Of a DNA stretch of 64,000 bases, positions 10,482-26,005 are shown in pieces (position 1 is the first letter of the stretch; every line of letters starts with the position of its first letter). The notes below the pieces were generated by a model, which was given only the letters and a program-made list of their open reading frames with translations, searched no databases and was not told the DNA's origin. This DNA comes from Coleofasciculus sp. B1-GNL1-01 (GTDB lineage Bacteria; Cyanobacteriota; Cyanobacteriia; Cyanobacteriales; Coleofasciculaceae). The position numbers were made by a program, and so were the translations under genes. The stretch is taken from the NCBI GenBank assembly GCA_040220235.1, contig JAVJTO010000118.1; one strand, 5' to 3'.

Positions 10482-11399
10482 TCAGTAGTTCATAATCAAC
10501 AATTCATTAATCTGTCCTCGCTGCATTGCCTTACTATTAATATTACGTTTCGCTTTTACTCGTTTTATAGCGTATCCTGCATAAGCACTGTCAAAAAACT
10601 CATCTGTCGAATCTTCATTTTTGGGGTCAGAGTTACTCAAAATTAACTTAGCCCCCTTCTGATCAAGCACTTGAAAAAAATCTCGTAATCTTAATTGTGA
10701 CGAATCATCGAAAATTTCTTGAGAATAGGACGTAAAATTTGCCGTTTTGCTTAGAGGTCTATAGGGAGGATCGAAATAAACTAGAGAGTGATTATCCACA
10801 AACGCTTCAGAGTCGGTGAAATCTCCATAATGAATCTGAGTATTTTTCAGAATTTGAGCCACCGCTATCAGGTTATCTGTCTGACAAATTTTTGGATTTT
10901 TATAGCGACCGATTGGAACATTAAATTCTCCTTTGGAATTAACTCGGAACAATCCATTAAAACAGGTGCGGTTGAGAAAAATTAGGTGAGCGGTTCTCTC
11001 AACCCAGTCTGGATAATAGGTATGAAAGTCTATTTGTTGACGCTGTAGATTGAATTGAGAGCGGATTTGATAGAAATATTGCTTTCGTTCTTCGGCATCG
11101 AAAGATAAATATTTGTCTTGAAGCTTTGACAAAAGTTTAATCAAGTCTTCTACATTTTTCTGAATCGTCTTATACGCTAGAATGAGTTCAGGATTAATAT
11201 CACAAATAAAAAACTCTTCAATTTTACCCAACTGGGCAATATATAGAAATACTGCCCCACCACCGACAAAAGGTTCAATATATCGATTGATTTTTCCCTG
11301 ATTCAACTCCTCAGGCAAATTTTTATCAATTTCTTTAATGAGTTGGCTTTTCCCACCTGCCCATTTTAAAAAGGGTCTGGCTTGCATGGAATTTTTCAT
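10482..11399 (-). CDS. dam: Dam-family (D12 class) DNA adenine methyltransferase, orphan
   Basis: PFLKWAGGK, YIEPFVGGGAV, FNGLFRVN and DPPY motifs; no cognate endonuclease adjacent. Confidence 0.9.
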   Translation of the reverse strand: MKNSMQARPFLKWAGGKSQLIKEIDKNLPEELNQGKINRYIEPFVGGGAVFLYIAQLGKIEEFFICDINPELILAYKTIQKNVEDLIKLLSKLQDKYLSFDAEERKQYFYQIRSQFNLQRQQIDFHTYYPDWVERTAHLIFLNRTCFNGLFRVNSKGEFNVPIGRYKNPKICQTDNLIAVAQILKNTQIHYGDFTDSEAFVDNHSLVYFDPPYRPLSKTANFTSYSQEIFDDSSQLRLRDFFQVLDQKGAKLILSNSDPKNEDSTDEFFDSAYAGYAIKRVKAKRNINSKAMQRGQINELLIMNY

Positions 11400-11991: not shown

Positions 11992-13353
11992 ATGTTCGCG
12001 TTTCTGCCCATTTTTCACCTCGCCCAAGCTACCCCTACACCTCCACCCCCAGTGGAGATTGTACAGTCGCAAGATGTGCGTCCGTTACCGGGACAATTGG
12101 ATCAGGTTCCGGTTTTCAATAGCAATAGTCCCGAACTTGTGCAAACCGAGGGAATTTTACTCTCGACATTTCCTGGAAACAACAAAGCCACTCCTAGCGC
12201 CCACTTAAACTTTCCCTTTCAGGGGCGTTTTGATATCTTTGCCCATCATGTTGCTAAAGCGCCAACACCGGATGATTTACGGACGCTATATTTGGGACTA
12301 CTTGTGCATAATCCCGGTGAAGAATCGGTCACGGTTGATATTCTGCAAGCGGCTAGTTACTTAAGTCAACCCGATGCACCGTTTATCCAGTTACCGTCTC
12401 AGGTTAAGAATCCCCAAGGTACAGTATATGCAGGTCCTGGTAGTCGGGTAATGAGTGATATATTGAGAGGCTATCGCCAAGCCGAGTTTCCGCCGCAAGT
12501 GGTGATTCCGCCTCAACAAAGCCGCCTATTACTCAATTTACCGATTCCAGTGAAATCCTTGGAACCGCCAATTAATGGGCGTTCCACGTTAATGCGGTTA
12601 CGCAGTAATGGACAGGTATATCTAGCCAGTCTCGCCCGTTATGCACCCACCGATGAGACGGGAAATGAACGCGCCCCCACCCTGGTAGAATGGCAACAGC
12701 TATTGGATACAGGGGAATTAGCTAGACCACGCGATCGCGCCCCAACTCCACCAGACTCAACTACGGGTAATATTATCTATGGGCGGGTTGCAGGTGTGGC
12801 TCAAGGATCACAGTGGCAAACTCAGTTAACTGATAGTCCGAGTTCCCAGGTTTTGACGATTCCTGAACCGGGAAAAGCCTTTTCTTATGGATTAAGTACC
12901 TTACCCGGTGGACGTTTAGGTACTGATCAAAGCCAGAGTGCGAGGATGCTGGTACGTTATCCTGATACTGCCTATTTTGCCCATGGTAATTATGGCGTGC
13001 AATATAGTTTAACCTTACCGTTGGTGAATCCAACTCAGGAGACAAAAACAGTTACCGTATCCTTACAAACGCCTCTAAAACAAGAAGAAATTGAGGACGG
13101 ATTACGGTTTCTAGAACCTCCAGCCAACCAAGTCTTTTTCCGAGGAACAGTGCGACTCCGCTATAACGATGATGCGGGAGTTCCGCGCACAGGATATTGG
13201 CATTTAGTTCAACAGCGAGGACAAGAGGGGGAACCGTTAGTGACGCTAAAAATGCCCCCATCCAGTCAAAGATTAGTGCAATTTGATTTTTTGTATCCAC
13301 CCGATGCAACGCCACCACAAGTTTTAACAGTGGAAACGTTAGGTGTTAAGTAG
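11992..13353 (+). CDS. DUF3370 family cyanobacterial protein
   Basis: VPVFNSNSPE, GILLSTFP, IYGRVAGVAQGS, AHGNYGVQY and YPPDATPPQVLT motifs. Confidence 0.85.
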   Translation: MFAFLPIFHLAQATPTPPPPVEIVQSQDVRPLPGQLDQVPVFNSNSPELVQTEGILLSTFPGNNKATPSAHLNFPFQGRFDIFAHHVAKAPTPDDLRTLYLGLLVHNPGEESVTVDILQAASYLSQPDAPFIQLPSQVKNPQGTVYAGPGSRVMSDILRGYRQAEFPPQVVIPPQQSRLLLNLPIPVKSLEPPINGRSTLMRLRSNGQVYLASLARYAPTDETGNERAPTLVEWQQLLDTGELARPRDRAPTPPDSTTGNIIYGRVAGVAQGSQWQTQLTDSPSSQVLTIPEPGKAFSYGLSTLPGGRLGTDQSQSARMLVRYPDTAYFAHGNYGVQYSLTLPLVNPTQETKTVTVSLQTPLKQEEIEDGLRFLEPPANQVFFRGTVRLRYNDDAGVPRTGYWHLVQQRGQEGEPLVTLKMPPSSQRLVQFDFLYPPDATPPQVLTVETLGVK

Positions 13354-13683
13354 GGCTTACTGCACAACCCGGAAACCCTGATCCATCAATACTTTGAGGC
13401 GTCTGGACAGTGGATAAAGTGCTAAGTAAGCTGTTCGGCATTTAAACCTTAATGTCAATAATGGTGAAATCCTTGTAGTGCGTTTAGCGAAGCCATGCCG
13501 AAGGCTTTAGCGAAGCCATGCCGCAGGCTTTGCATCTTGCTCGCTACTAATACCCAATTTAAATGCATAACAGCTTATGGCATCACCTTGCTCAGGGAAA
13601 ATGTACCCTTGCTCCCCCAGCTCCCCCAGCTCCCCCAGCTTCCCCTGCTCCCCCTCACCTCACCACTTATTCAGCAAGCCCTA
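13351..13683. mobile_element. Nested MITE-like elements (outer TAGGGCTTACTG...CAGCAAGCCCTA; inner TAAGCTGT...ACAGCTTA at 13427-13577)
   Basis: Two pairs of terminal inverted repeats; the inner element is homologous to 1-171 and 17268-17392. Confidence 0.65.
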
Positions 13684-13723
13684 AGTAGGTGGGGACAATT
13701 AAAGTTGTTATTTGTCTTATGTC

Positions 13724-15136
13724 TTATGTCATTGTTTTTTGATAAAATTGCCAGGTTTGTTCGATATCCTGTCTCATGCGCTGTCGCAACTCATTCGGGA
13801 ACATGACTTCTACCTTGGGTCCCCAAGCGCGGAGTCGCATGATTACGGTATTGTCCTGATGCCGATAGCGAAGTGCGTAATAAGCGGCATCAGAATAGGT
13901 GTGAATATGAGCTAGGATCTGTCGGGGATTGGGTAAGTTTAAGTGTTCAATTAATACCAGTGCTTCTTGGTAACTATCCAGTTTCTCAAAAGTCGGATGA
14001 CGGAAGGAGTTGTCGATGTAACGCTGGGCAAAATCAGCATCAAACCGCAGCAGGGTTAAGTCGGATTTTTCATAGAAATCAAAGCCATAAGCGGCGTCTA
14101 ATTCCTGTTGAATATAAGCAGGCGCATAGTTTTCCGGATGGTTGATAATCTCTGATTTTGAGAAAGGGAGATCGGGAGTATCCCAAGGCAGTTTTTGATA
14201 CTTGCTTATCCGTTCTAAACGGTAGTTATACCATCCCACTGGCGCTTGGGTTGCTGTTTTATGCGGTCTTTGACCAAAGGCGCAGAGGTAGTAAGCTCTC
14301 TGATAATAATACAGGCAAACTGGATAAATGGTGTAGTTTTTAGTTTGATTTAAGGAAGCACTGTGATAGGCAATTTGCAGCGGTGGGGTAGGCGTCTCTT
14401 GCCAAATTTCTTTGAGGCGATCGGCTAAATCCGCTGAGGTTTCCCGCAATTCTTCCTTAACTACATAGTCATGATGGATAAATAAGCGTTGTTCGCCATT
14501 AATTTTTGTGAATAACAGTTGGGCAATAGTCGATACATCATTGGTAAAAAATCCTAAGGTTCCTGCATAGGAAAAATTAGGGTCGGTCGTGAATGGTTCA
14601 AGGATAGCAGCCGTTGACCGTTTGCGGAATTTGTGAATTGGCTTTTTGGTTGTTGTTTGGGGATTGATCAGTTGTCGCTCTAGGAACGGAGTTTTAAGTT
14701 GAGACAACTGAGTTAGGTGATTGCGTAAGGTACGGTCAGTTGCCGAAAAAATGGCAGTTGATAAGAGTTTGTCAATATCATTTCCCTCTAACGTATATCG
14801 AGATTTTAAGGTAGCAATGAATTGATTGGTGAAGGATTCGGTATATTCGGGAAATAGCCAATCGGAGAAAGAACGAGTTTTATAATGATCAACTTTTTCC
14901 TTGAACTTCTTTAACCAATCCGCACAGTTAAAGAGTTCAGTTTCAAATTCGATAAAGAAGTGACTATCGCGGTCATACAACGACCGGATCATGACCCACC
15001 GTCGAGCGTCACAGGCTAAAAGTGTGAGGCAATTTTTGGATTGGGTTGGAGCCGATGGATGATTAGAAACTTGCAATAGTTCTGGTACAAGGGTTTCTAA
15101 GCAGTGGACGGTGGGCAGAAATTCTTCAGCAGACAT
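13724..15136 (-). CDS. CRISPR-associated WYL-domain regulator (cyanobacterial TIGR03985/Sll7078-like)
   Basis: HTH-like TDRTLRNHLTQL; WYL region YPVCLYYYQRAYYLCAFG...WYNYRLERI; C-terminal MRLRAWGPKVEV; divergent from the cas operon; start chosen at ATG (MSAEEFLP). Confidence 0.8.
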   Translation of the reverse strand: MSAEEFLPTVHCLETLVPELLQVSNHPSAPTQSKNCLTLLACDARRWVMIRSLYDRDSHFFIEFETELFNCADWLKKFKEKVDHYKTRSFSDWLFPEYTESFTNQFIATLKSRYTLEGNDIDKLLSTAIFSATDRTLRNHLTQLSQLKTPFLERQLINPQTTTKKPIHKFRKRSTAAILEPFTTDPNFSYAGTLGFFTNDVSTIAQLLFTKINGEQRLFIHHDYVVKEELRETSADLADRLKEIWQETPTPPLQIAYHSASLNQTKNYTIYPVCLYYYQRAYYLCAFGQRPHKTATQAPVGWYNYRLERISKYQKLPWDTPDLPFSKSEIINHPENYAPAYIQQELDAAYGFDFYEKSDLTLLRFDADFAQRYIDNSFRHPTFEKLDSYQEALVLIEHLNLPNPRQILAHIHTYSDAAYYALRYRHQDNTVIMRLRAWGPKVEVMFPNELRQRMRQDIEQTWQFYQKTMT

Positions 15137-15336
15137 GGAGTGATGGGAGGTAATGACTAGCTTCTGATTATAGTCGTTGCTGGTAGCCCCCTTTTCCAAC
15201 AGATTTAATGTCTATATGTAGTGGACTGACACACAGGACTTACGCAAAAACGCTACATATAGTAGGGGCACGGCAATGCCCATTGGTGTCAACTTAAGCT
15301 CAACCCCTCTCCCCCAGCCCCTCTCCCACGCCGGGG

Positions 15337-16795
15337 CTATGCATTACCCACATCTTTCTTAAACATTGTGCGATCGCGTCGCGATCTGGCTGGACTGAGC
15401 AGAGTTGTGCAGTCTAAGTCAGTACAGTTTCTGGTTTTGGGATGCGATCGCGTTTCGGGATGGGATTGCCTGACTGGATGTATCAGGAGCCAGAGCCTAT
15501 AATTCCTGCTTGTGGCATTCGCATCTGAAAATAAATAAATGAAAGAACTTCGATGGGCAGCCCAAGAATTGCGGTACACCAACTTAGGTGATGCTCGGCG
15601 AAATCAACGCCTGGTTAAAATTGTCGAAGACTTAGCCGAACAGCCTAATGAAAGCATTCCAACGGCTTGTGGAAATTGGGCAGCAACCAAAGCTACCTAC
15701 AACTTGTGGAAATCACCACGCATCAAACCCGATGACATCCGTTCGTCTCATCAAATCAGTACTGTGGAGCGGTCAAAAGAGCATAGTATTGTCTTGGCAA
15801 TACAAGACACAACAGATCTCAACTTCACTCACCATGAAAGTCAATGCTGGCTAAGTGCTTCCGTTGCGACCGAGTTAGCCTTACCTGAAGACATAGAGGT
15901 GGTGACGATTGCCGATCGCGAAGCGGATATTTACGATTTATTTGCCATGACTCGTCAAACGCGATCGCATCTATTGATCCGAGGTACTCATAATCGTCGT
16001 GTTGACCATCAAGCCAAGTATTTGCACGCCAGCATTGAGCAAGCGCCAGTAGCTGGATTTGTCACCATTACTGTACCTCGTAACGGGAGGGCGACCCCAG
16101 AGGCAAGCTACCCTAACCGTTCGCTTTGCTACCCTAGATATACAACCACCTCGCCATCATCTTCAAAGAGCTAAACTCTCTCCAGTTACTCTTCAAGTGG
16201 TATTAGCCACGCTCATCTAATCCACCCAAGGATACCACACCCATTTGCTGGTTATTGTTAACAACCCTACCTGTCAATAGTTTTGATGAAGCTGTCCAAT
16301 GTATACGATGGTACTCTTTTCGCTGGCTGATTGAACGCTATCACTACGTTCTTAAAAGCGGTTGTCACCTCGAACAACTACAATTGGAAACACGAGAGCG
16401 TATTGAGTGTGCTTTGGCTACTTATTCCATTGTTGCTTGGCGCTTATTGTGGCTCACTTATCAAGCTCGCTCTAGTCCTGATACACCTTGCGATACGGTT
16501 TTACAGACCCATGAGTGGCAAGCTCTCTATTGTACTATTCACTCTCAACCTATACCTCCACAACAACCTCCTTCTCTCCGGCAAGCCGTTGGTTGGATTG
16601 CTCAACTCGGCGGTTTCTTAGGGCGTAAACATGATGGTGAACCTGGAGTCAAAACTATTTGGCGCGGTGAAGAGAGACTACAAGATATCGCTGCTACCTG
16701 GCAGTTACTTCACTCCTAGCTATTAAGTTCCATTTTAACTAACGGCTTGAAAACGCGATCGCACAATGTTTAAGAAAGATGTGGGTAATGCATAG
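15337..16795 (+). mobile_element. IS4-family (IS50/Tn5-like) insertion sequence, decayed
   Basis: 43-bp perfect terminal inverted repeats CTATGCATTACCCACATCTTTCTTAAACATTGTGCGATCGCGT (15337-15379 / 16753-16795). Confidence 0.92.
15539..16719 (+). pseudogene. IS4-family transposase pseudogene (internal deletion and frameshifts)
   Basis: LGDARRNQRL, QDTT, ADREADIY, RWLIERYHYVLKSG and LGGFLGRKHDGEPG motifs split over two ORFs (15539-16174, 16255-16719); the segment between QDTT and ES.WL is unusually short. Confidence 0.88.
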
Positions 16796-17267
16796 CCCAC
16801 CAGGGGAGAGGGGAGCAAGAAAGATAAAAGGGTGTTCTTTTCCCTGATACTAGAAGCGGTTTTATGTAATGGTTCCCCTTCTTTCCCCCCCCATTTCAAA
16901 GAGGTAGAAAGAAGAGAGAGGAGAGCAGCGATAACCTTTCAACACTATCCGCCCTTGCCTAAATTAGCAGTAGATTGGGTCGGAAATAATCGACAATAAA
17001 CAAGAATTTATTTCAGCCTCAAAGAAGCGAAAAATTTGTGATAGCTTGCGCTTTTTTTAGGGGACGATGGAACAATAAGTAGTCGGACAAAAGAAAACGG
17101 TACGCTCCAACAAGTGCAAGTAAATCGCCGTCAAACCCTTACTGTTCCCGGTTAAGAGTTCCCTAATCTCATTTGAGTAACCGCCGCTACACAGACCGAA
17201 TCCGTGATTTTTTTCTATTTCCGCGTCGGCGGACTTTTTTGGTAGGGTTCCGCGATTTTAATGGCTA

Positions 17268-17491
17268 AAGCTGTAATGCATTTAAATGGGGTATTAGTAG
17301 CGAGCAAGATGCTCAATGTAGTGAGCAAGATGCTCACACTACGACAAGGATCTCGCAATTCTTGACATTATGGTTTAAATGCCGAACAGCTCAAAGCTTT
17401 GTCAACACTGACATCATCTAGGTTCGTAGTCAGCACTTTAGTGCCTTAAGCGCTGAAGCGCTGACTACAAACTTTTAAATTAGCGACATTC
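17268..17491. mobile_element. Two adjacent MITE/REP-like elements (17268-17392 AAGCTGT family; ~17401-17491 GTTCGTAGT...CTACAAAC family)
   Basis: Homology to 13427-13577 (inverted) and to 37431-37505 and 40645-40734. Confidence 0.7.
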
Positions 17492-17587
17492 ACCTCCTAA
17501 CAAGAGGTTATGACCCGACATTCGGATGTTCGTCAAGGCTGACTTTGCCAGGTTTTAACACCTTTACCTCCTCACAGAGGTCGTGAC
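17492..17587 (-). CRISPR. Minimal CRISPR array: one intact 36-nt repeat (GTCACGACCTCTGTGAGGAGGTAAAGGTGTTAAAAC, 17552-17587), one 37-nt spacer (17515-17551), one degenerate truncated repeat (17492-17514)
   Basis: Repeat has GT...AAAC ends and an ACCTC/GAGGT hairpin; the second copy matches 19 of 23 aligned positions at 73-bp spacing; abuts a leader-like sequence and cas genes. Confidence 0.7.
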
Positions 17588-17770
17588 CCCTCCATTTAAA
17601 ACCCTTACCCCGCCTAATGTCCAGAGGCAGTTTGCGAAGCTTACCGATTTTGTCCTTCCAAACCCCCCACAATTCCCGAAAAAAATCGCTAGAATCCTTA
17701 CCAGACAAGGCGGCGAAGTTTCCAACGAAAGAATAGGCATTTCAGCGATTTTGGTTAACCCTCGCAATTT
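17588..17770 (-). promoter_or_regulatory. CRISPR leader-like sequence
   Basis: Directly adjoins the repeat; resembles cyanobacterial leaders (TTCGCAAACTGCCTCTGGACA...GTAAGGGTTTTAAA on the minus strand); has a diverged homolog at 24505-24665. Confidence 0.6.
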
Positions 17771-17852
17771 GTGCAATGGTCACAAGACCCGAAACAACCC
17801 ATTGAGTCAAGCTATAGTTGAAAAAGTATCATCCGGCTACCCCCCAACTATC

Positions 17853-19373
17853 ATGCTACCCTTACCCACAGAACTCCCCCAGTGGTACACCGTTGAACCC
17901 ACAGAAGAGAAAGGATGGACTCCCAAAACCAGTGACATTCTAGAAAAGCCGGAAAATCAAGATATCATTCAGGCGTGGAAAGGAACATTTGAACCAAACC
18001 CCTCCCATACCTACACCATTCGTCTAGATAACCTACAAGTTATCAGTCCCATTCAAGTCGGAGGTGGACGCTTTCCTGAAGGTGGCATATTACCCGCCCA
18101 AATTAGCGGTGTTCCCTATATTCCGGGTTCCAGTGTTCGAGGTGCTTTCCTGCATTGGCTACAGGTGAAATGGCAGGATTTATCCACGGCTGAACAAGAA
18201 TTTTGGTCAACTCTATTGACCGCTAATCGCCAAAGCTGGCAACCGCGAACGATTCGATTTGAAAGTATTCGTTTAAAAAACCTTAAACCCTTTCCCCTAA
18301 ATCCGCAACAACCCTGGCAGGTTTTCAATCAAAAAAGCAACAAACTAGGGATACAATGGCAAGTTTCCCCTCACCATCCGCTTCGTCCTAGTCCCGATAG
18401 ATTCTGTCTGCAAGTCTTACTCCACGATAATCCCACTCCTGAACAAAAATCTTGGCTGGAAAACCGACTCACAGAAATGTTACAAGAACAAGGACTTGGA
18501 CGAGGTACAGCTTCCGGTTTTGGTCGCTTAGCCAAATCTGTACCATCGGGACAGTGGGAACTCCAATTAACTGGAATGAAACCCGGTGTTCAACCCCACA
18601 GTCCCAAAGATAAACAAATAGGCAAATATCGTTGGAGTCCGCAAGTGCTACGGGCTAACTTACGCGGTTATTTTACTCGTTTAGCCCTTTATTTATTAAA
18701 CCGCGATCGCGCCGAAAAATTGACGAGTATAATTTTTGGGGGGTTGGGGTGTCCGGCTCAATTAAGGTTAACCAGTTACCTGAAGCAGGTTGTCAAACCC
18801 CGTCCTGGAGATATACCCAGCAATAGTTACACCAATATTCCCGCCCAAGATGCTCATCAAACCTGGCGAATTTCTGTTAACTGTAATTCCCCCTTTCAAG
18901 ACTTAGTGGGTGGATTACTGGATTTAGCGAGTCGTTTGGGGGGAATGGGTCCGGGTTGGCGCAGACCCCCGCATCAGTTGGAACGGTTTAATGGGTTTCG
19001 GGGGAGTGAATTTACCGTCACGCCTGCGAACTCTGAGCAACTGTTAAATGAGTTAATTGATTCTCTCAAAGATGTGATTAGGAATTTGGCGCAAAGGTAT
19101 GGCTTACGGCTTTTGCCTAATCCAGTTTCTGTTCCAGGTAGTATTATCAGCATTTGGCGGGGAAAATCAGACCAGTGGCGCGATATTGTCCATGGTGTTT
19201 GCAGTACCACGGCTAAGAATCGTCCGGATTGGTGTGGAAATACTCAGAATCGCCCGTCGGGTTATGCTGTGCGACACTATGAAAGTTATTGTCTGATTAC
19301 TGTATTTGATTCTAGGGTGGAAGCGACGTTAAGACGACAAGGTTTTCAGTCGATTTGGTCGGGGATATCTTGA
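17853..19373 (+). CDS. Type III-B RAMP fusion protein, Cmr6-like plus Cmr1-like (two Cas7-group domains)
   Basis: N-part SPIQVGGG...GVPYIPGSSVRGAF...QGLGRGTASGFG; C-part LRANLRGYFTRLAL...IFGG...LGGMGPGWRRP. The upstream extension from 17583 runs through the leader, so the start is set at ATG 17853. Confidence 0.8.
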   Translation: MLPLPTELPQWYTVEPTEEKGWTPKTSDILEKPENQDIIQAWKGTFEPNPSHTYTIRLDNLQVISPIQVGGGRFPEGGILPAQISGVPYIPGSSVRGAFLHWLQVKWQDLSTAEQEFWSTLLTANRQSWQPRTIRFESIRLKNLKPFPLNPQQPWQVFNQKSNKLGIQWQVSPHHPLRPSPDRFCLQVLLHDNPTPEQKSWLENRLTEMLQEQGLGRGTASGFGRLAKSVPSGQWELQLTGMKPGVQPHSPKDKQIGKYRWSPQVLRANLRGYFTRLALYLLNRDRAEKLTSIIFGGLGCPAQLRLTSYLKQVVKPRPGDIPSNSYTNIPAQDAHQTWRISVNCNSPFQDLVGGLLDLASRLGGMGPGWRRPPHQLERFNGFRGSEFTVTPANSEQLLNELIDSLKDVIRNLAQRYGLRLLPNPVSVPGSIISIWRGKSDQWRDIVHGVCSTTAKNRPDWCGNTQNRPSGYAVRHYESYCLITVFDSRVEATLRRQGFQSIWSGIS

Positions 19374-19382
19374 TTGAGCAAC

Positions 19383-19501
19383 GTAATAGGTTTCTAATGT
19401 AAATTAGGATGGGTGGCGAAGACAGCGCTTACTACGAACGCCTAAGTAATAGGTCTCTAGTGTAAATTAGGACAAGTAGCGCTAAAGCGCTTACTACGAA
19501 C
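19383..19501. repeat. Imperfect tandem duplication, period 63 bp, each unit ending in a REP-like AGCGCTTACTACGAAC
   Basis: GTAATAGGTYTCTARTGTAAATTAGGA...AGCGCTTACTACGAAC at 19383 and 19446. Confidence 0.8.
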
Positions 19502-19512
19502 GGAGTTTGATC

Positions 19513-20973
19513 ATGCCACGTTATTTAATTCTGCAAGTTTTGGGGAGTAGCGATATTCTTGTCGATTCGGAATCAGGGACTAAAAAGTTAGAGGCTTGTT
19601 ATACTTTGGCAGATGTCCAGGCGGCACAACAATGGAATGATGAGGACTTTATTCATCAACTCGAACGGGTGGATTTTCCTCTGATTCGCCAAGTTTGGCA
19701 AGAACAGAAAAATCAGGCTGAACTGTATTGGGGAATTATTTTAACCAATCAGGTGGACTGGATGCAACACCAGGATGAGTCGGGTGAAGGGTGGAATGAT
19801 ATTGTTACCTCGGATGGATATTGGTGGCGCAATATCTTAGAAAACTGGTGTCAGCAGCAGGGGATTAATTATTATCCGATTTTCCTTAATGTTGGTGCTG
19901 ATATTCCCAAAGGGGCGGCGGATTGGGACGGAATGGCAAAGCAGATTGATCCTTTATTAAACGGATTAATTCAATTTGAGTCGAGTCGGATAGTTTTTAC
20001 TCCCCCAGCGGGACAAACAATTCCAGTTGATCAGATTCTTGTCCAGCACAGCAGTGGAACTCCGGCTTTGAGTAGTGCGCTGTACCTTTGGGGAATTGAG
20101 CAAAAGTTAGCTAAACGAGAGATTGAATTTATCTATATTTCTCGACAAGACTCAATTTCGTATTTCCATTCTGGCACTCATTGGCAGTGGCGATTAAAAG
20201 TGCCTCAAATTAGGCAGTTGTTGGCAATTCAAGATTTCGCTGGGGCGAATGAATTGTTAGCGGATCATCCCGATCAAACGCTGCGGGAAACCTGCCAATA
20301 TCTCGATCGCGCGGTCTCCTTTAATCTCGCCCAACTCAATCTAGGCTTAACTCCCCAAGATGAAGTCATCGAACGGATCAGTATTGCTTTGTGGAGTGAA
20401 CAAGCCTTTCGCGATCGCGGACAGTGGATGCATTGGTATTTGAGAGTGGCGGGGGCGTTTGAACTCGCGATCGCTTGTTTAATTATTCAGCGAGGATCGG
20501 GGAATTATCGATGGAATAAAGAGAAGGGTAAGACGTTCTTAGAGTACACTGACCCGAATACAGGAAATACGGATAAATTTAATCGGAATATTGGCATTAA
20601 AAAGAGAGTGACTGATTTATTAAGTCACGGATCAACGTCAAAATATAAGGTTGACAAAATTCAGTCTAACCCCGATTGGGATAAGTTCAAGGAGTTTTAC
20701 TGTGATAACCAGTGGCAACTCGATGCTCAAACCCAAAACAGTTTTATCTATCTCAGAAATGACTTATACCATGCTTTGCTGGGGGACAGTATTGATAAAA
20801 TTTTAGATGCTCAAAAAGAAGCTTGCGGATCAGTCAATCATCCCGATCATCCCTCAGAAGTTGCCGTGCAGCAACTGCGCTATATTATCGAATTGGCGGG
20901 GTTATCGTCCCAGGTACAGCAGCGAGTTCAGGCGTATGAATGTAAGGTTAATGATATTAAAATATGCCTCTAA
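19513..20973 (+). CDS. CARF-HEPN type III accessory ribonuclease (Csx1/Csm6-like)
   Basis: Rossmann-like start ILQVLGSSD, CARF-type HSSGTPALS loop, C-terminal R-x4-H motif RNDLYH (20755-20772); lies inside the cas operon. Confidence 0.75.
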   Translation: MPRYLILQVLGSSDILVDSESGTKKLEACYTLADVQAAQQWNDEDFIHQLERVDFPLIRQVWQEQKNQAELYWGIILTNQVDWMQHQDESGEGWNDIVTSDGYWWRNILENWCQQQGINYYPIFLNVGADIPKGAADWDGMAKQIDPLLNGLIQFESSRIVFTPPAGQTIPVDQILVQHSSGTPALSSALYLWGIEQKLAKREIEFIYISRQDSISYFHSGTHWQWRLKVPQIRQLLAIQDFAGANELLADHPDQTLRETCQYLDRAVSFNLAQLNLGLTPQDEVIERISIALWSEQAFRDRGQWMHWYLRVAGAFELAIACLIIQRGSGNYRWNKEKGKTFLEYTDPNTGNTDKFNRNIGIKKRVTDLLSHGSTSKYKVDKIQSNPDWDKFKEFYCDNQWQLDAQTQNSFIYLRNDLYHALLGDSIDKILDAQKEACGSVNHPDHPSEVAVQQLRYIIELAGLSSQVQQRVQAYECKVNDIKICL

Positions 20974-21067
20974 GGTTAAAATACCAGAGGACGACCTGAC
21001 CCCATGGAAAGGGCGACCCGATCCCATTGAACTGATATCTTGTACCTTTTTCAGTAAGCCCTAACAT

Positions 21068-21311
21068 CCGCCAAGAACTCAAGTTCTTGGCTAAAAGCTC
21101 AAGTCCACTAAAGTGGACTCAAATTCTTAAGTAGTCGGATAAAAGAAAACAGGACTCATGAAGTTTTGTAAATAGCCCCTAAACCCTTAACAATGACGTA
21201 GCTTCTGGCGAAAGCAATTTCTCCACTGTTAACTTTAATGATATCCACTTACTTATCTAGTCAGCTTTAGCTGACTTTAGCTTTCAGCCTTGGGTTTAAA
21301 CCCAAGGCGGT
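21068..21311. repeat. Pair of oppositely oriented double-hairpin REP-like elements in the CARF-cas10 intergenic gap
   Basis: GCCAAGAACTCAAGTTCTTGGC plus AGTCCACTAAAGTGGACT, and AGTCAGCTTTAGCTGACT plus GCCTTGGGTTTAAACCCAAGGC; same family at ~45892-45943. Confidence 0.7.
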
Positions 21312-21371
21312 TGGTGAGACTTTTTTCTCCCATCTCCCTAATCCAAATCAACCTGATCTAAATCAAAGCCA

Positions 21372-23870
21372 ATGAATCTGCAAGATTGGTTAATTAAGCA
21401 GCAAAACTTATATCCAATTCTTCCGCAAGCCGAACCTCTCCTATCTACCCATCCCGTGAGTGGAGAATGGCAAAATTCCTCTCATCTAAAAAACCAGGTT
21501 TGGTGGGGAGGTGGGGCGAGTCAGGAGGCTTGTCAGCAAATTGATTTGGGCAATACTCCTACCCTGACCCAGATTGGAGTAATTAGCTTTGGTCCAGTTC
21601 AATCCTTTCTGGGGGGTGGACAACGGCTGAGAGATTGGGCGGTGGCGTCTTGGTTGTGTCATTACCTATCTGCTGTTCTCATTTATCGCTGGGAGGAGTG
21701 GGGTGGTAAGGTGTTGTTACCCCTGCACCATTCCTCCCCCTTGGTCAATTGGTTGCGAGGTTCTACCTCAGTTGATCAGCGGTTTTGGCGTCCGGAATTG
21801 CCCAATGTGGTGACGGGAGTATTTCCCGAATCCGATAGTTGGTTAGAGAACGTCCAGTCACTGATCCAACAGGAATGGGGACGATTACTCAAAGGTTTAG
21901 AACAAGCCGCGATCGCACACAATTCCCAACTCCTCAATGGGATTGGCTGGCGGGTGATTCATCGCGATCATCAATGTCTGTGGTCAGTTTACACTGAGTC
22001 TACTCCCATCCGCGTGGGACAGATTGTTGAGGATATCGCCAACCTACACCAAGGAATTGAATCTCAGAAACTGGGTCGCGATTGGCAAGGAACCTGGTGG
22101 GGGGGACGAACTAGCCCAAGTGCAGGTCATTTATCCATTTGGCATCCCGGCTTGCAACCGATTGACCAAGGCGGAACCTGGGGATTAGAGAAACCCATCC
22201 TGGATCAATGGTGGGAACGGGCGGCAAAAGAGAGTAAACTCAAAGGACTCTTTTCAGAAAGCGATCGCCTCAACAGTATTGAAATGCTGAAGCGGTTAGC
22301 CTCAGTGCCAGATATTATTGTGCCAACCCTAAAACAACTCTGGGGGAAAACGCCACCGGATTGTCCTTGGGGACAATTTCCCGATCGCACAGCGGCGGCG
22401 GCGGCTTGGATACCCACCCAGCCTCAGGTTAATCTCGATTTGTGGAATCAAACCCTGCAAGGGCTAGAACGGGATTATTTTTCAACCTTACCCCAAAAAA
22501 CCCAATGGGGTATGCCCAGGGCAGATCAAAACGGACAATTTACTCATCCCCGTAGCTTAGAACGGCGCAATATAGAGGATAAAGAACTCTTAGAAATTTG
22601 GCAAAGCGACATCCCCAACAGTTGGCAAAGCACCATTGAATGGACAGTCGGCTGGCGGGGAGATGGGGACAATATGGGCAAATGGCTGTCTGGCAAACAG
22701 TATCAAACCCTGAAATTACCTTGGTCAAAATGGCATCCGAACGCTGAACAGATCACCCACTATAACTTAGGCATCCAACCGCCGAACGTACCCAACCAAG
22801 CCCGACAACTAGAGTTACCCCACATCCTCGACTTGTCCCTATTATTCAGTTTATGGAATGAACTTCTCTATGCTTTAACCGAAGTGCATCACGATAGCAA
22901 AGTCATTTTTGCTGGTGGGGATGATTTCCTCTTACTCGGACCCCTCACCGAAGCCATTTCCCTAACCCATGACCTACACGCCCTTTGGACAGGCAAACCC
23001 TCTCCCTTAATTCAACCTCTCACTCCCCCAGTAGACGGCTGGGTACAGTATCAGGATCAACTCTATCCGATACCGGGGGAAAAAATGCACTTCAGCTTAG
23101 GTATTGTCATTGCCCAACGGCGAATTCCCCAATCCCTTTGGCATCGCGGCTTAAATCAGGCATATAAACAGGCAAAATCTCAAGGACGTAACCGCGTCTG
23201 TATCCAAGTTTTATTTAATAGTGGTCAATCATTACAGTGGGTTTGTCCCTGGTCTTTATGGAATTTACTCATGCCCATTGAACCCACAAAAGAAGGCAAA
23301 ACCGAACTCAATGCTTGGGAGAAACTATTAACCTATTTGGAAAGCACCCGCTTGCGGGATGTATCTATCTTTACAGTGGGAGACTTAATCGATACTCTCT
23401 GGGCGAGTGTGGGTATTCCCCTCACCTGGGAACAGGTATTAACAGTAGGTCGCCGCGATTATCATGTTTATCTGCGCTGGTTGAAATTAAACAATGTCCA
23501 GCATTGCACCGATACTTTACCCCGACCCGAACAAATCCCCAATAATCGGCTGATTATAGTACCCGATGATAGCATTAACATCATCGTCGATATGGGATTA
23601 GTGCGGCAACCGAGGGTCAGTTTAAAAAACCTGGATGAGATTGATCAAGCCGCAGAACGTCAAGAGAATCCCGATGAAAACACCAGTTTAGTCAATAATC
23701 TGTTTTCAGTCGAAGGCTTTCCTCCAGGGGCAGTCTTTCTGATTAGTTGGACACCCAGGGGTAAGGTGGAAGAGATAGAGAAATGGGAGAAATTTCTCGA
23801 CGATGAACATTTTCTGGGGGGATTGTGGAGTGTGGGGTATGGGCGAATTCAGATTTCTCAGATTGAGTAG
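21372..23870 (+). CDS. cas10: Cas10/Cmr2 (no HD domain, intact GGDD) fused in frame to the C-terminal half of a Cmr4/Cas7 RAMP
   Basis: ISFGPVQSFL...RDWAVASWL (Cmr2 N-term), GDGDNMG, VIFAGGDD (22914-22925), AKSQGRN; the last ~135 aa (LVRQPRVSL, NLFSVEGFPPGAVF, FLGGLWSVGYGR) are Cmr4-like. Confidence 0.85.
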   Translation: MNLQDWLIKQQNLYPILPQAEPLLSTHPVSGEWQNSSHLKNQVWWGGGASQEACQQIDLGNTPTLTQIGVISFGPVQSFLGGGQRLRDWAVASWLCHYLSAVLIYRWEEWGGKVLLPLHHSSPLVNWLRGSTSVDQRFWRPELPNVVTGVFPESDSWLENVQSLIQQEWGRLLKGLEQAAIAHNSQLLNGIGWRVIHRDHQCLWSVYTESTPIRVGQIVEDIANLHQGIESQKLGRDWQGTWWGGRTSPSAGHLSIWHPGLQPIDQGGTWGLEKPILDQWWERAAKESKLKGLFSESDRLNSIEMLKRLASVPDIIVPTLKQLWGKTPPDCPWGQFPDRTAAAAAWIPTQPQVNLDLWNQTLQGLERDYFSTLPQKTQWGMPRADQNGQFTHPRSLERRNIEDKELLEIWQSDIPNSWQSTIEWTVGWRGDGDNMGKWLSGKQYQTLKLPWSKWHPNAEQITHYNLGIQPPNVPNQARQLELPHILDLSLLFSLWNELLYALTEVHHDSKVIFAGGDDFLLLGPLTEAISLTHDLHALWTGKPSPLIQPLTPPVDGWVQYQDQLYPIPGEKMHFSLGIVIAQRRIPQSLWHRGLNQAYKQAKSQGRNRVCIQVLFNSGQSLQWVCPWSLWNLLMPIEPTKEGKTELNAWEKLLTYLESTRLRDVSIFTVGDLIDTLWASVGIPLTWEQVLTVGRRDYHVYLRWLKLNNVQHCTDTLPRPEQIPNNRLIIVPDDSINIIVDMGLVRQPRVSLKNLDEIDQAAERQENPDENTSLVNNLFSVEGFPPGAVFLISWTPRGKVEEIEKWEKFLDDEHFLGGLWSVGYGRIQISQIE

Positions 23871-23917
23871 GCTACGTTTCACTTACATTATAAAATGGTC
23901 TTATTTTAATTATTGAT

Positions 23918-24358
23918 ATGCCCAGAAAACCTGTCGAAACCTATGAATTAGATCGAGAAGTCTTTCAACGGCTTAAACAAGGAAAAGATACCTTTGATGA
24001 TTGGCAGGGGGCAGCTAGTGGGATTGGGGATTATGTCGCGAGTTGGGGTGTAGAACGCTTCTGGGCGATGTCTCGTTCGCCAATTTTACGAGGAGGAGAA
24101 ACCTCCAAAGAAAAGGATGAGAACGAGGGGCGGCGTTATTTTGCCTGGGGAGTGGCGCGAGAAGTCTTATGTAAAATTGTCGGGAATGATTTAAGAATTC
24201 GTCAGGATATGACGACAGAAGAGTTTCAGAATCGATTTAGAGATTTGGAGTTTAATCAGCAGGTTTTGTTAACGGATTTACTCATGGAAATTTCTGAAAC
24301 GATTCAGTTTTGGACGATGCGATTAAAAGATGCCCGTGAGAGTAAAATTGAGCCTTAG
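23918..24358 (+). CDS. cmr5: Type III-B small subunit Cmr5 (Cas11), cyanobacterial type
   Basis: 146-aa helical protein with YELD, WGVERFW and terminal IQFWTMRLK motifs; directly after the Cmr4-like segment. Confidence 0.7.
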   Translation: MPRKPVETYELDREVFQRLKQGKDTFDDWQGAASGIGDYVASWGVERFWAMSRSPILRGGETSKEKDENEGRRYFAWGVAREVLCKIVGNDLRIRQDMTTEEFQNRFRDLEFNQQVLLTDLLMEISETIQFWTMRLKDARESKIEP

Positions 24359-24504
24359 TCGGTCAGTAATTGTAGGTTGGGTTGACGAAGGAAACCCAAC
24401 TTATTAGCAACAGAAGCAGAATATCTCTCAAATTAGGAAACTGGCGACCAACCCAAGCCGGGACAAATTTGTTACCTGTTCCCTGTTAAGAGTTCCCTTT
24501 CCTA

Positions 24505-24665
24505 ACCAAAATGTCCAGCCCTCATGGGCGAGGGGGTCTGATTTTGTGCCGACAAATGCCCAAAAATCTGCTCCAAAAATCGCTGAAACCCTTACAGGAC
24601 AAGGCAGCGAGAGAGTCTACGAAAGAATCAGCCTTTCAGCCATTTGCCCACCCCCTCGCCGAAAC
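24505..24665 (-). promoter_or_regulatory. Second, orphan CRISPR leader-like sequence
   Basis: AAAAATCGCTGAAACCCTTACAGGACAAGGCAGCGA...ACGAAAGAAT...TTTCAGC...CCCTCGC is colinear with 17681-17765; no repeat found next to it. Confidence 0.55.
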
Positions 24666-24778
24666 TCTACTCTATGCGCGATCGCTCCCTATAGATACAA
24701 CTTTCTCACCTCTAGGTTATTGCCAAGATTACATCCCAGGTGGCAAAATTAATTTAATCTATCAATTCAACGAAAACA

Positions 24779-25057
24779 ATGCTGAAAGCCGTAGTTGTAG
24801 TTCTAGTGGTGGCAGAGCTAGTATTATTGACTGCGTTCCGACTAGCTCCAGCGCAAGCAACACCCTCTGATTCCCAAGTGTATACCTGGGGATTTTTACG
24901 TCCCGGAAGTCAACAATTAGTTTGTAAGCAGATTACTATCCATCCTGAAAAAGAGGTTGTTTCCCAAACCTCGCACCATAAATCGATAAAGATGTCCTCT
25001 AAATCTAAAATTGTTGAGGATAGCTACTGTTCCCATTTAACCAAACCGTTTGCATAG
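24779..25057 (+). CDS. Small secreted/membrane-anchored protein, possibly a Csx21-like type III accessory protein
   Basis: Hydrophobic N-terminus with AQA cleavage-like site, two Cys; position at the end of the cas locus; family assignment is from recollection only. Confidence 0.55.
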   Translation: MLKAVVVVLVVAELVLLTAFRLAPAQATPSDSQVYTWGFLRPGSQQLVCKQITIHPEKEVVSQTSHHKSIKMSSKSKIVEDSYCSHLTKPFA

Positions 25058-25356
25058 CGTCGATTGTTGTAACAGGCGGTTGACAATACAAGCAGAGGAT
25101 GAACCAACTCCAGAAAAAGGGCGACCCGACCCCATTGAGTGGATTGGTGTTGTTCATTGATGCAGGCGGGTCGCCCCTACAGGTCGGATTAATTTGTATT
25201 ACACGCTACATTATCCTTCAGAGGCAAAATGCGCGATCGCAAGCCGTTTCTGTCTACTGAATGTAAGAATAGTTTGATAAGCTATCTAGGAAGCTGACCT
25301 AGGGTCAGTCCTAAAGTTTTCACGGCTCAAAAATCGGGTTGGGATTGAGAGACACC

Positions 25357-25986
25357 ATGGAATGGCACGGAACAGATGCTCAAAGTTTGGCAATTATCGA
25401 TCGCGAAATTGGCGCTCATACCTTTTCACCCGCCGAATACGAAATTGTGCGCCGGGTGATTTATGCAACAGCCGACTTTGAGTATCAAAAGCTGATTCGG
25501 TTTTCCGAACGTGCGTTACAAGCAGGCGCGGCGGCGCTAGCGGCTCGGACTACAATTGTGGTAGATGTGCCGATGGTACAGGTGGGAATTACGCCTCACA
25601 TTCAAGAAACCTTTGCCAATCCCGTCTATTGCAGCATGGAAGCCATCACCCGCCCGCAAAAAGACAAAACGAAGGCGGCTTGGGGAATTCAAACCCTAGC
25701 CAGACGTTACCCAGAGGGGATTTTTGTGGTGGGTCAAGCACAAACGGCGCTAACAGCATTGGTGGAACTGATTGAAGCAGAGGAAATCCGTCCCGCCTTA
25801 GTCATTGGCACACCTTCAGGATTTGTTGAGGTCGATGTTGCCAAATCCCGACTCGAAGATTCCTTAGTGCCTCATATTCGCATAGAAGGGCGTAAAGGGT
25901 CATCAGTTGTCGCGGCGGCTATTGTTAATGGACTGGTAGACTTAGCATGGCAGGCGTATGGGCAGGATAGTACCAGTGTAAATTGA
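25357..25986 (+). CDS. cobH: Precorrin-8X/cobalt-precorrin-8 methylmutase
   Basis: SLAIIDREIG, RRVIYATADF, PALVIGTPSGFV and GRKGSSVVAAAIVN motifs. Confidence 0.9.
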   Translation: MEWHGTDAQSLAIIDREIGAHTFSPAEYEIVRRVIYATADFEYQKLIRFSERALQAGAAALAARTTIVVDVPMVQVGITPHIQETFANPVYCSMEAITRPQKDKTKAAWGIQTLARRYPEGIFVVGQAQTALTALVELIEAEEIRPALVIGTPSGFVEVDVAKSRLEDSLVPHIRIEGRKGSSVVAAAIVNGLVDLAWQAYGQDSTSVN

Positions 25987-26005
25987 ATCCTTCGAGGGTA
26001 TGGGT

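Follow-up and report, generated by a model that had tools for sequence, protein, structure and literature searches.

Introduction

The CRISPR3 locus of Synechocystis is characterized, in the portion of PMC6546367 available to us, by an unusual Cmr1-Cmr6 fusion and the lack of an obvious Cas6 homologue. The fusion is a feature described in the accessible part of PMC10243305 too, while excerpts of PMC12464536 and PMC3575380 attribute the processing of CRISPR3 CRISPR RNA (crRNA) to RNase E, with 5' handles of 13-14 nucleotides (nt). Here we analyse a CRISPR-Cas locus of type III-B in a 64,000-nt stretch (the window) of contig JAVJTO010000118.1 of Coleofasciculus sp. B1-GNL1-01 (assembly GCA_040220235.1). 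A first-pass annotation of the window had noted that cyanobacterial III-B variants with fused Cmr1 and Cmr6 and without cas6 exist and had likened the locus to Synechocystis CRISPR3, a view with which the same portions of PMC6546367 and PMC10243305 agree. It went on to describe a reduced module comprising an effector encoded by three open reading frames (ORFs), two of them fusions, with a CARF-HEPN gene inside the operon and with a WYL gene and a small secreted protein as further members, and it left the choice between a system minimised still further, to signalling only, and one in the midst of decay.

We conclude that this is very probably a cyanobacterial, cas6-less III-B variant locus of a known type that was disabled very recently and is now mid-decay. 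On this reading, one blunt deletion of 1,717 base pairs (bp) removed cmr3 (Cas5) and, from the Cas7-backbone gene cmr4, the N-terminal half, leaving a chimera that is in frame by chance. The array collapsed to a single spacer, dispersed repeat elements inserted at three places and a rearrangement associated with an insertion sequence (IS) swapped the original left flank for an unrelated orphan WYL gene. The deletion and its frame, the array collapse, the insertions, the breaks in synteny and the graded loss in the genus are shown by the comparisons below. Of the two alternatives, decay is thus upheld by the deletion and by a series of loss stages across the genus, and the further-minimised system is disfavoured by related loci, none of the 17 having the fusion on which it depends.

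A deletion beneath the apparent Cas10-Cas7 fusion

The source genome (G000) is an 8.66-Mb draft of 172 contigs, scored 100% complete. When species-representative genomes were scanned with the 832-residue protein encoded by the apparent fusion ORF (21372-23870), 79 loci were found; 17 of these are cyanobacterial (53-97% identity), and each matched solely residues 1 to ~700 of the protein. These related loci, compared by tblastn of all window proteins, consist of L001, a 6.5-kb contig (C376) of the same-genus genome G005 that spans CARF-HEPN to cmr5, and 16 further cyanobacterial loci (L002-L017). Environmental contigs from three DNA metagenomes (X1, X4 and X10), each from a different study, were also aligned onto the window.

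Residues 4-697 of the ORF product match the Cas10b profile PDLC02053, with Pfam hits to Cmr2_N and Cas10-Cmr2_palm2 in this part, while residues 725-826 correspond to the C-terminal half of the RAMP model in Pfam. The cyclase motif, GGDD at residue 515, has been kept and is invariant in 18/18 aligned Cas10 sequences. The cmr4 remnant covers positions 101-188 of 189 in the Pfam RAMPs profile and shares 89% amino acid identity with the C-terminus of L001 Cmr4; by tblastn, query residues ~695-832 map in the related loci to the C-terminal half of a separate Cmr4 gene and never to Cas10. Two blocks of L001, 1646-3790 and 5508-6409, correspond to window 21320-23464 and 23465-24366, respectively, at 95-97% nt identity, and the 97% identity of cas10 to L001 ends at 23464. 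What is missing from the window is exactly 1,717 bp (L001 3791-5507), made up of the last 35 codons of cas10, the whole of cmr3 (341 codons) and codons 1-134 of cmr4. Its two ends meet bluntly and lack microhomology, and frame arithmetic and translations place the junction in frame, giving Cas10(1-697)-His-Cmr4(135-268). A Cas10-Cmr4 fusion is found in 0/17 related loci. Matches in contigs from the three metagenomes end at 23464 or begin at 23465, with 130-426 further unmatched letters, and no contig among the pieces listed bridges 23464/23465, so the environmental relatives carry the undeleted form. On these alignments, the 'Cas10::Cas7 fusion' reads as the scar of one deletion and not as a new minimal system, so that of the two fusions counted initially this one is a chimera, while the other, Cmr6-Cmr1, is real according to its structural model.

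In Cmr complexes, Cmr3 together with Cas10 holds the 5' handle of the crRNA, and the Cmr4 backbone serves the pairing of crRNA and target and passes the activating signal on to Cas10. From this architecture we infer that, without Cmr3 and full-length Cmr4, no crRNA-guided complex would form. The Cas10 cyclase would then not be triggered by target RNA, the cognate CARF-HEPN protein would be left without its signal and the locus alone would provide no immunity.

In a further-minimised, signalling-only type III system, the Cas10-Cas7 fusion, Cmr6-Cmr1 and Cmr5 would act as a crRNA-guided sensor, with cyclic oligoadenylate (cOA) activating the CARF-HEPN RNase. Consistent with this, all five frames are open, the GGDD and HEPN RN...H motifs are intact, the fusion is in frame and one spacer is left with an intact repeat. 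We nevertheless consider it very improbable, as the fusion is seen in neither the 17 related loci nor the three metagenomes (0/17 and 0/3), the junction is blunt and without lineage history, Cas10 is 35 residues short, and Cas5 is gone along with Cmr4's N-terminal half, which in Cmr4 homologues holds the catalytic Asp. The same locus is, moreover, lost piecemeal in genomes of the same genus.

Mis-assembly would offer a more mundane explanation, whereby the strain has an intact locus and both the 1,717-bp gap and the short array are artefacts. The genome is after all a draft of 172 contigs, short-read assemblies often collapse CRISPR arrays, and no sequencing run found in a search for the source strain contained more than 0.33 of the sampled words. 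This is the least probable of the readings considered here. The deleted segment is unique and has no repeat or microhomology at its ends, so an assembler would have no reason to skip it; tblastn detected no copy of the family cmr3 or of the 5' part of cmr4 elsewhere in an assembly scored as complete, and cmr3 is likewise absent from the window contig; and three private insertions mark the window as a distinct haplotype.

Architecture of the family in cyanobacteria

The module conserved among the related loci comprises CARF-HEPN, Cas10 (~733-755 residues), Cmr3, Cmr4, Cmr5, an array and the Cmr6-Cmr1 RAMP gene. Separate cas10, cmr3, cmr4 and cmr5 genes are present in 16/16 of the loci L002-L017, and cmr3 in 17/17 once L001 is counted. 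CARF-HEPN and cmr6-cmr1 are each present in 15 of the 16, the exceptions being L007, where the contig begins at cas10, and L011, where it stops after cmr5. CARF-HEPN lies directly upstream of cas10 in all 16 relatives with sequence reaching that far. The RAMP gene is mostly convergent, beyond the array, and is on the same strand in three loci. Full PADLOC scans (E ≤ 1e-5, ±10 kb) of four relatives (L004, L008, L010 and L012) yielded gene names that agree with this architecture in every case, and within the same limits they revealed neither Cas6 nor WYL. Arrays in the relatives have 3-27 repeats by a crude k-mer scan. The HD domain is absent from the Cas10 of every family member; in the window protein there is no HD match and just ~69 residues precede Cmr2_N, in line with the earlier description of an HD-less Cas10. 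Family scans and the relatives' repeat likewise recovered all the listed genes and the mini-array at the positions first given for them.

Cas10 matches the existing PADLOC Cas10b profile at 1,103 bits (profile positions 1-683 of 717), and Cmr5 matches PDLC01186, named 'Cmr5gr11, new subfamily', at 228 bits. The clade is therefore already captured by existing profiles, and the locus falls within a kind of system already known, the III-B variant that lacks cas6 and has Cmr6 fused to Cmr1; Cas10 nests inside a described architecture, which removes the claim of novelty. The Cmr6-Cmr1 fusion and the operon-encoded CARF-HEPN are genuine family traits. The latter was rightly placed inside the operon, as PADLOC confirms, but is no sign of reduction.

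Several relatives show peculiarities of their own. In Scytonema sp. PCC 10023 (L003 8299-9983), CARF-HEPN matches in two pieces (query residues 6-340 and 359-484) separated by a gap of ~240 nt, and the gene may be interrupted. In Planktothrix paucivesiculata PCC 9631 (L008 12196-13790), an opposite-strand ORF of 362 residues with no PADLOC match lies between cas10 and cmr3, an insertion into the operon. In Laspinema palackyanum (L012 5874-8453), the gene immediately upstream of CARF-HEPN encodes a CorA-like accessory protein of 860 residues (PADLOC CorA, 204 bits), and Cas1 is encoded downstream. The L004 (split) and L008 loci have TnpB/Cas12f-like ORFs at their flanks.

Subunits that remain intact

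The RAMP ORF as listed starts at GTG 17583 and encodes 596 residues, reading through the repeat and the leader. Relatives align by tblastn just from residue ~86-94, so the true start of cmr6-cmr1 is probably ATG 17853, which would leave the first 90 codons of the listed ORF non-coding. The long Cmr6 profile of PADLOC (PDLC01212) is its best match (3.9e-20). We modelled the protein with AlphaFold2 from a 13-sequence alignment (mean predicted local distance difference test score 70.3, predicted template modelling (TM) score 0.65). VIA-align superposed residues 233-505 of the model on full-length Cmr1 (Archaeoglobus fulgidus 9l7c_A, Z 14.5; 4l6u, Z 14.0; Pyrococcus furiosus 4w8x, Z 11.6) and residues 37-229 on Cmr6 (9x25_I, Z 9.3; 3x1l_H, Z 9.1), the latter range also superposing on Csm3. 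Comparison of a Cmr6-Cmr1 profile with PDB sequences gave weak Cmr6 matches alone (best E 8e-4). Foldseek gave TM-scores no higher than 0.50, an effect of the two-domain build of the protein, and it was the VIA-align ranges that settled the assignment. The model thus points to a protein with Cmr6 as its N-terminal and Cmr1 as its C-terminal half.

CARF-HEPN matches the PADLOC profiles CARF1--CARF_HEPN (7.7e-19) and Csx1 (1.2e-11), while its Pfam CARF match is below the cut-off (17 versus 27.5 bits). The HEPN motif RNDLYH (417-422), whose columns show conservation in no fewer than 16 of 17 sequences, is kept in the window protein, as is the CARF loop QH.SGTP (180-186); a CARF domain by PADLOC, combined with a HEPN domain bearing an R-X4-6-H motif, is what characterizes Csx1/Csm6-type proteins. 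Cmr5 is 97% identical to its L001 counterpart at the amino acid level.

With these partners intact, the Cas10(1-697)-Cmr4(135-268) chimera could conceivably be active, either as an unregulated or differently regulated source of cOA or, by titrating Cmr5 and Cmr6-Cmr1, as a poison subunit. We think it decidedly unlikely that the chimera is anything but inert. If it were active, a single deletion would have made a natural 'orphan' Cas10-CARF/HEPN signalling pair.

The CRISPR array

The array remnant consists of a degenerate terminal repeat (~17474-17515), one spacer of ~36 nt and one intact repeat of 36-37 nt (17552-17588), to be set against the 3-27 repeats of the relatives. The intact repeat is homologous to the relatives' array repeats (for example, those of L004) and is the sole copy in the 8.66-Mb genome at up to nine mismatches. 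A repeat finder at default settings reported no direct-repeat family in 15000-17700, the two-copy array being recognized via the relatives' repeat. On contig C104 of G005, the left flank, the degenerate repeat and the first spacer are all the same as those of the window and are followed by six intact repeats with five more spacers, after which the right flank runs, as in the window, into the RAMP gene. The window array has shrunk to one spacer, apparently because the units lying between its first and its last intact repeat dropped out.

Read as its reverse complement, the window repeat ends in ...GTTAAAAC. By convention, a ...GAAAC end serves to orient CRISPR repeats, and with the degenerate repeat lying at the far end, the array was probably transcribed on the minus strand, with its leader between the array and cmr6-cmr1.

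Stages of loss across the genus

To place the deletion within the genus, the locus was compared by BLAST with 20 related genomes and the fetched regions were inspected. A single chromosomal site, upstream of a small ORF of 92 residues (ORF92) and cbiC, holds very different remains of the same III-B locus. The locus is intact in G005 and has the core deletion in G000. All that G002 retains, joined straight to the flank, is 65 nt from cas10 and 171 nt from cmr5, whereas G007 has the left flanking paralogue of ORF92, scraps of ~190 nt of cmr6-cmr1 and CARF-HEPN, and then cbiC. In G004 and G006, two ORF92 paralogues are adjacent, with no cas sequence between them. The genus thus presents a series of successive loss stages, from intact through core deletion and scraps to empty.

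ORF92 or its paralogue occurs where the site holds no cas genes (G003, G004 and G006), so the small secreted protein, first taken for a part of the module, belongs to its flank. In G005, a paralogue flanks the cassette on the left, such that the cassette sits between tandem paralogues, and in G000 a paralogue is found on contig C93. This arrangement suggests that the cassette was inserted, or is excisable, between ORF92 paralogues. The tandem paralogues have ~83% nt identity (window 24745-25080; C93:2383-2835; L088 4746-5197; L091 and L092).

Selection and age of the deletion

That the remaining ORFs are all open was first offered as a sign of ongoing selection. Pairwise ratios of non-synonymous to synonymous substitution rates (dN/dS) against G005 are 0.26 for cmr6-cmr1, 0.54 for CARF-HEPN, 0.14 for cas10, 0.38 for the cmr4 remnant and 0.07 for cmr5. 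When amino acid changes were polarized with 15-16 outgroups, nine fell on the window branch and 13 on the G005 branch, with 69 left unpolarized; relaxed selection on the window branch was not detected by this comparison, which has low power at ~3% divergence. No relaxed constraint is visible, but no special constraint either. Approximately 5.5% of random substitutions in these frames would make a stop, and the absence of stops bounds the neutral substitutions since the deletion to fewer than ~53, or ~0.9% per site. The synonymous divergence between the window genome and G005 is 6-17%. The frames are therefore open because the deletion is young and too little time has elapsed, and the argument from open ORFs to selection is without force.

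Features and neighbouring elements

The features of the locus and its surroundings are collected in table 1. Neither the IS remnant nor the three insertions had been mentioned in the first-pass annotation. Rfam, at the gathering threshold, gave no match in window 13000-26000. Two listed ORFs, 24511-24870 (119 residues) and 20807-21064 (85 residues), were taken as spurious, as they have no family matches and overlap a window-specific insertion or conserved non-coding sequence.

Table 1. Coordinates of the III-B relic and adjoining features in the window.
Feature	Position	Strand	Evidence
WYL-domain CRISPR-associated regulator, TIGR03985 family	13724-15199	-	NCBIfam, PADLOC
Degenerate IS4/Tn5-like insertion sequence	15334-16798	+	Pfam, inverted repeats
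120-nt MITE-like dispersed repeat	17273-17392	.	Absent there in G005; on far (trailer) side of array remnant
CRISPR array remnant	17474-17588	- (inferred)	Homology to relatives' repeats
Cmr6-Cmr1 fusion gene, 506 residues (probable start)	17853-19373	+	PADLOC, AlphaFold2 model, relatives' alignment
CARF-HEPN (Csx1-like) gene, intact	19507-20973	+	PADLOC, conserved motifs
288-bp insertion private to window, CARF-HEPN/cas10 intergenic	21032-21319	.	Alignment with L001
Truncated HD-less cas10/cmr2, codons 1-697 of ~733	21372-23464	+	PADLOC, Pfam, L001 alignment
Deletion junction, 1,717 bp lost	23464/23465	+	L001 alignment
3' cmr4 remnant, residues 135-268 of 268	23465-23870	+	L001 identity, Pfam RAMPs
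cmr5 (Cas11), intact	23918-24358	+	PADLOC
195-bp insertion private to window, downstream of cmr5	24367-24561	.	Absent from L001
Small ORF (ORF92), 92 residues, signal-peptide-like N-terminus	24779-25057	+	Hydrophobic N-terminus judged by eye
cbiC	starts 25339		Next gene after ORF92

The WYL protein is a strong match to NCBIfam TIGR03985 (335.4 bits versus a cut-off of 60) and to the PADLOC WYL profile (414 bits), and it passes the Pfam WYL cut-off (25.8 versus 21.8 bits). No WYL relative was found in the 17 related loci at E ≤ 1e-5, and its inclusion in the module does not stand. An orthologue that is 93% identical is present in G003, where the left-hand order of Dam methylase, DUF3370 and WYL is shared with the window. 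Beyond WYL, G003 has a csx3-like ORF, a Cas1 of 354 residues and three arrays with a repeat different from that of the window; neither this repeat nor this Cas1 was found in G000. Synteny with G003 ends at window 15158 and synteny with G005 begins at 16796, the IS remnant filling the interval, while the left flank of G005 is located on contig C93 of G000. From these synteny breaks, the WYL gene is the orphan of another, lost CRISPR module, brought beside the III-B relic by a rearrangement at the IS remnant. A reciprocal product of an IS-mediated event was sought on C93 and rejected: the G005 left flank there abuts a different transposase-like insert, with no copy of the IS.

The same G003 region (L102, G003:C18, 10600-19400) also holds an NYN-domain ORF, and its three short arrays have a 36-nt repeat ending ...GTTGGAAAC. 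The syntenic pair of Dam-type N6-adenine methyltransferase and DUF3370 genes lies at window 10482-11399 and L102 2371-7025, with ~3.5 kb extra between them in G003.

The IS has perfect terminal inverted repeats of 46 nt and a transposase frame split into ORFs of 211 and 154 residues; on account of this split the copy, the only one in G000, is probably inactive. Pfam matches to Tnp_DNA_bind (80.5 bits), the C-terminal part of DDE_Tnp_1 and Dimer_Tnp_Tn5 (57.5 bits) assign it to the IS4 family (Tn5-like). Among the IS4-like copies in the metagenomes, some show a single-base difference from it at 16090, and others have internal deletions (15594-16442 region) with joints that skip 847 or 1,405 nt, which suggests that the family also exists as derivatives resembling miniature inverted-repeat transposable elements (MITEs).

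At their window positions, all three insertions are missing in G005 and in the metagenome contigs. The 120-nt MITE-like element is bounded by imperfect terminal inverted repeats and contains a 19-nt tandem duplication. G000 has 120 copies that reach 80% or more of its length, and same-genus genomes have many more; in metagenome contigs its summed depth is very high, with loose ends at 17268/17391. The 288-bp insertion is a mosaic of small dispersed palindromic repeats where G005 has 42 bp, and it is skipped by an environmental contig (X1 record 5) as in L001. The 195-bp insertion is absent from X1 record 6 too, and its first 40 nt are a dispersed repeat with ~51 occurrences in G000.

Other CRISPR systems in the genome

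Three further CRISPR loci are found in G000. The III-B locus on C143 (1-14000) looks complete, with Cas10, Cmr3, Cmr4, Cmr5, a Cmr6-type protein of 592 residues, Csx1, a CARF-WYL protein and two arrays, one with 10 repeats and one with 11. A further III-B gene set, found on C101 (8000-24000), may also be damaged: its Cas10 covers profile positions 2-594 of 875 and there are gaps between the genes. C51 carries a I-B locus with Cas4-Cas1, Cas2 and Cas6. The absence of cas1, cas2, cas6 and cmr3 from the window, as first described, was confirmed by our scans. The window contig has neither cas1 nor cas2, both of which are on C51; no Cas6 was found among the window ORFs scanned, the only Cas6 that PADLOC detected in G000 being that of the I-B locus; and Pfam PF01881 had no match across G000. 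Loss of the window locus would be tolerable because the genome carries two other III-B loci and the I-B locus.

The additional III-B loci also raise the prospect of partial salvage, in which the effector is dead and CARF-HEPN, possibly with cmr5 and cmr6-cmr1, is kept for activation in trans by cOA from C143 or C101. In other organisms, non-cognate type III systems are known to activate CARF effectors in trans, both loci have a Cas10, and the CARF and HEPN motifs of the window protein are intact. On the other hand, C143 already has its own Csx1, the dN/dS of CARF-HEPN is the highest of the set (0.54), and G002 and G007 have lost CARF-HEPN with the rest of the locus. We regard salvage as unlikely.

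Discussion

The view that this is a recently disabled III-B locus in decay has to be weighed against several observations that do not favour it. The deletion is in frame, for which the chance is 1 in 3. The junction is read from the assembly, the best sequencing run containing 0.33 of the sampled words. No damage is visible in the GGDD and HEPN motifs, the CARF loop, cmr5 or cmr6-cmr1, leaving room for residual or trans activity, and the relative-rate test is weak in power at ~3% divergence. An RNA library (X20) contains short (190-342 nt), low-depth contigs at 97-99% identity on cmr6-cmr1, CARF-HEPN, cas10 and cmr5. X20 also has joints typical of the scrap form seen in G002 (23208>24112 and 24282>25085), yet its contigs derive from relatives and are thus no proof of transcription.

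The locus adds no new CRISPR mechanism and will not surprise specialists. It does illustrate how a deletion chimera can pass for a new domain architecture, both in annotation pipelines and with readers who have just the sequence; here, one close relative settled the matter. It also documents a well-populated cyanobacterial clade of cas6-less III-B systems with a Cmr6-Cmr1 fusion and an operon-encoded CARF-HEPN. Within the genus, the remains at one site provide a base-resolved natural time series of type III dismantling, and so material for studies of defence-system turnover, with the loss in this case occurring in a genome that retains two other III-B loci.

As far as the available parts of the published descriptions go, the locus resembles CRISPR3 (III-Bv) of Synechocystis sp. 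PCC 6803 in its Cmr6-Cmr1 fusion, the lack of cas6 in the locus, its cyanobacterial host and its III-B backbone. It differs in that the operon of its clade opens with CARF-HEPN and in that the window copy lacks cmr3 and full-length cmr4 and has a single spacer. A tblastn search with Cas10 and Cmr6-Cmr1 against a plasmid collection, intended for comparison with sll7085-sll7090, listed no PCC 6803 record, the presence of pSYSA in that collection being unverified; the only close plasmid match was in Synechocystis sp. B12, at 53% (Cas10) and 49% (Cmr6-Cmr1) identity.

With the canonical III-B Cmr systems of Pyrococcus furiosus, Archaeoglobus fulgidus and Saccharolobus (Cmr-beta), the locus shares the GGDD palm of Cas10/Cmr2, and its relatives have Cmr3, Cmr4 and Cmr5. 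The modelled C-terminal half of its RAMP protein superposes on Cmr1 (Z 9.9-14.5) and the N-terminal half on Cmr6 (Z 8.0-9.3). It departs from them in having Cmr1 and Cmr6 as one polypeptide, a Cas10 without HD and no cas6, and, in the window, in having lost Cas5 and the Cas7 backbone by deletion.

A partial cas operon, an eroded array, insertions of IS or MITE elements and the presence of redundant systems elsewhere in the genome mark degraded or orphan CRISPR-Cas loci, and the window locus has each of these. It differs in coming with a near-identical, intact reference in the same genus that maps the disabling event to the base, and with later stages of the same loss available for comparison.

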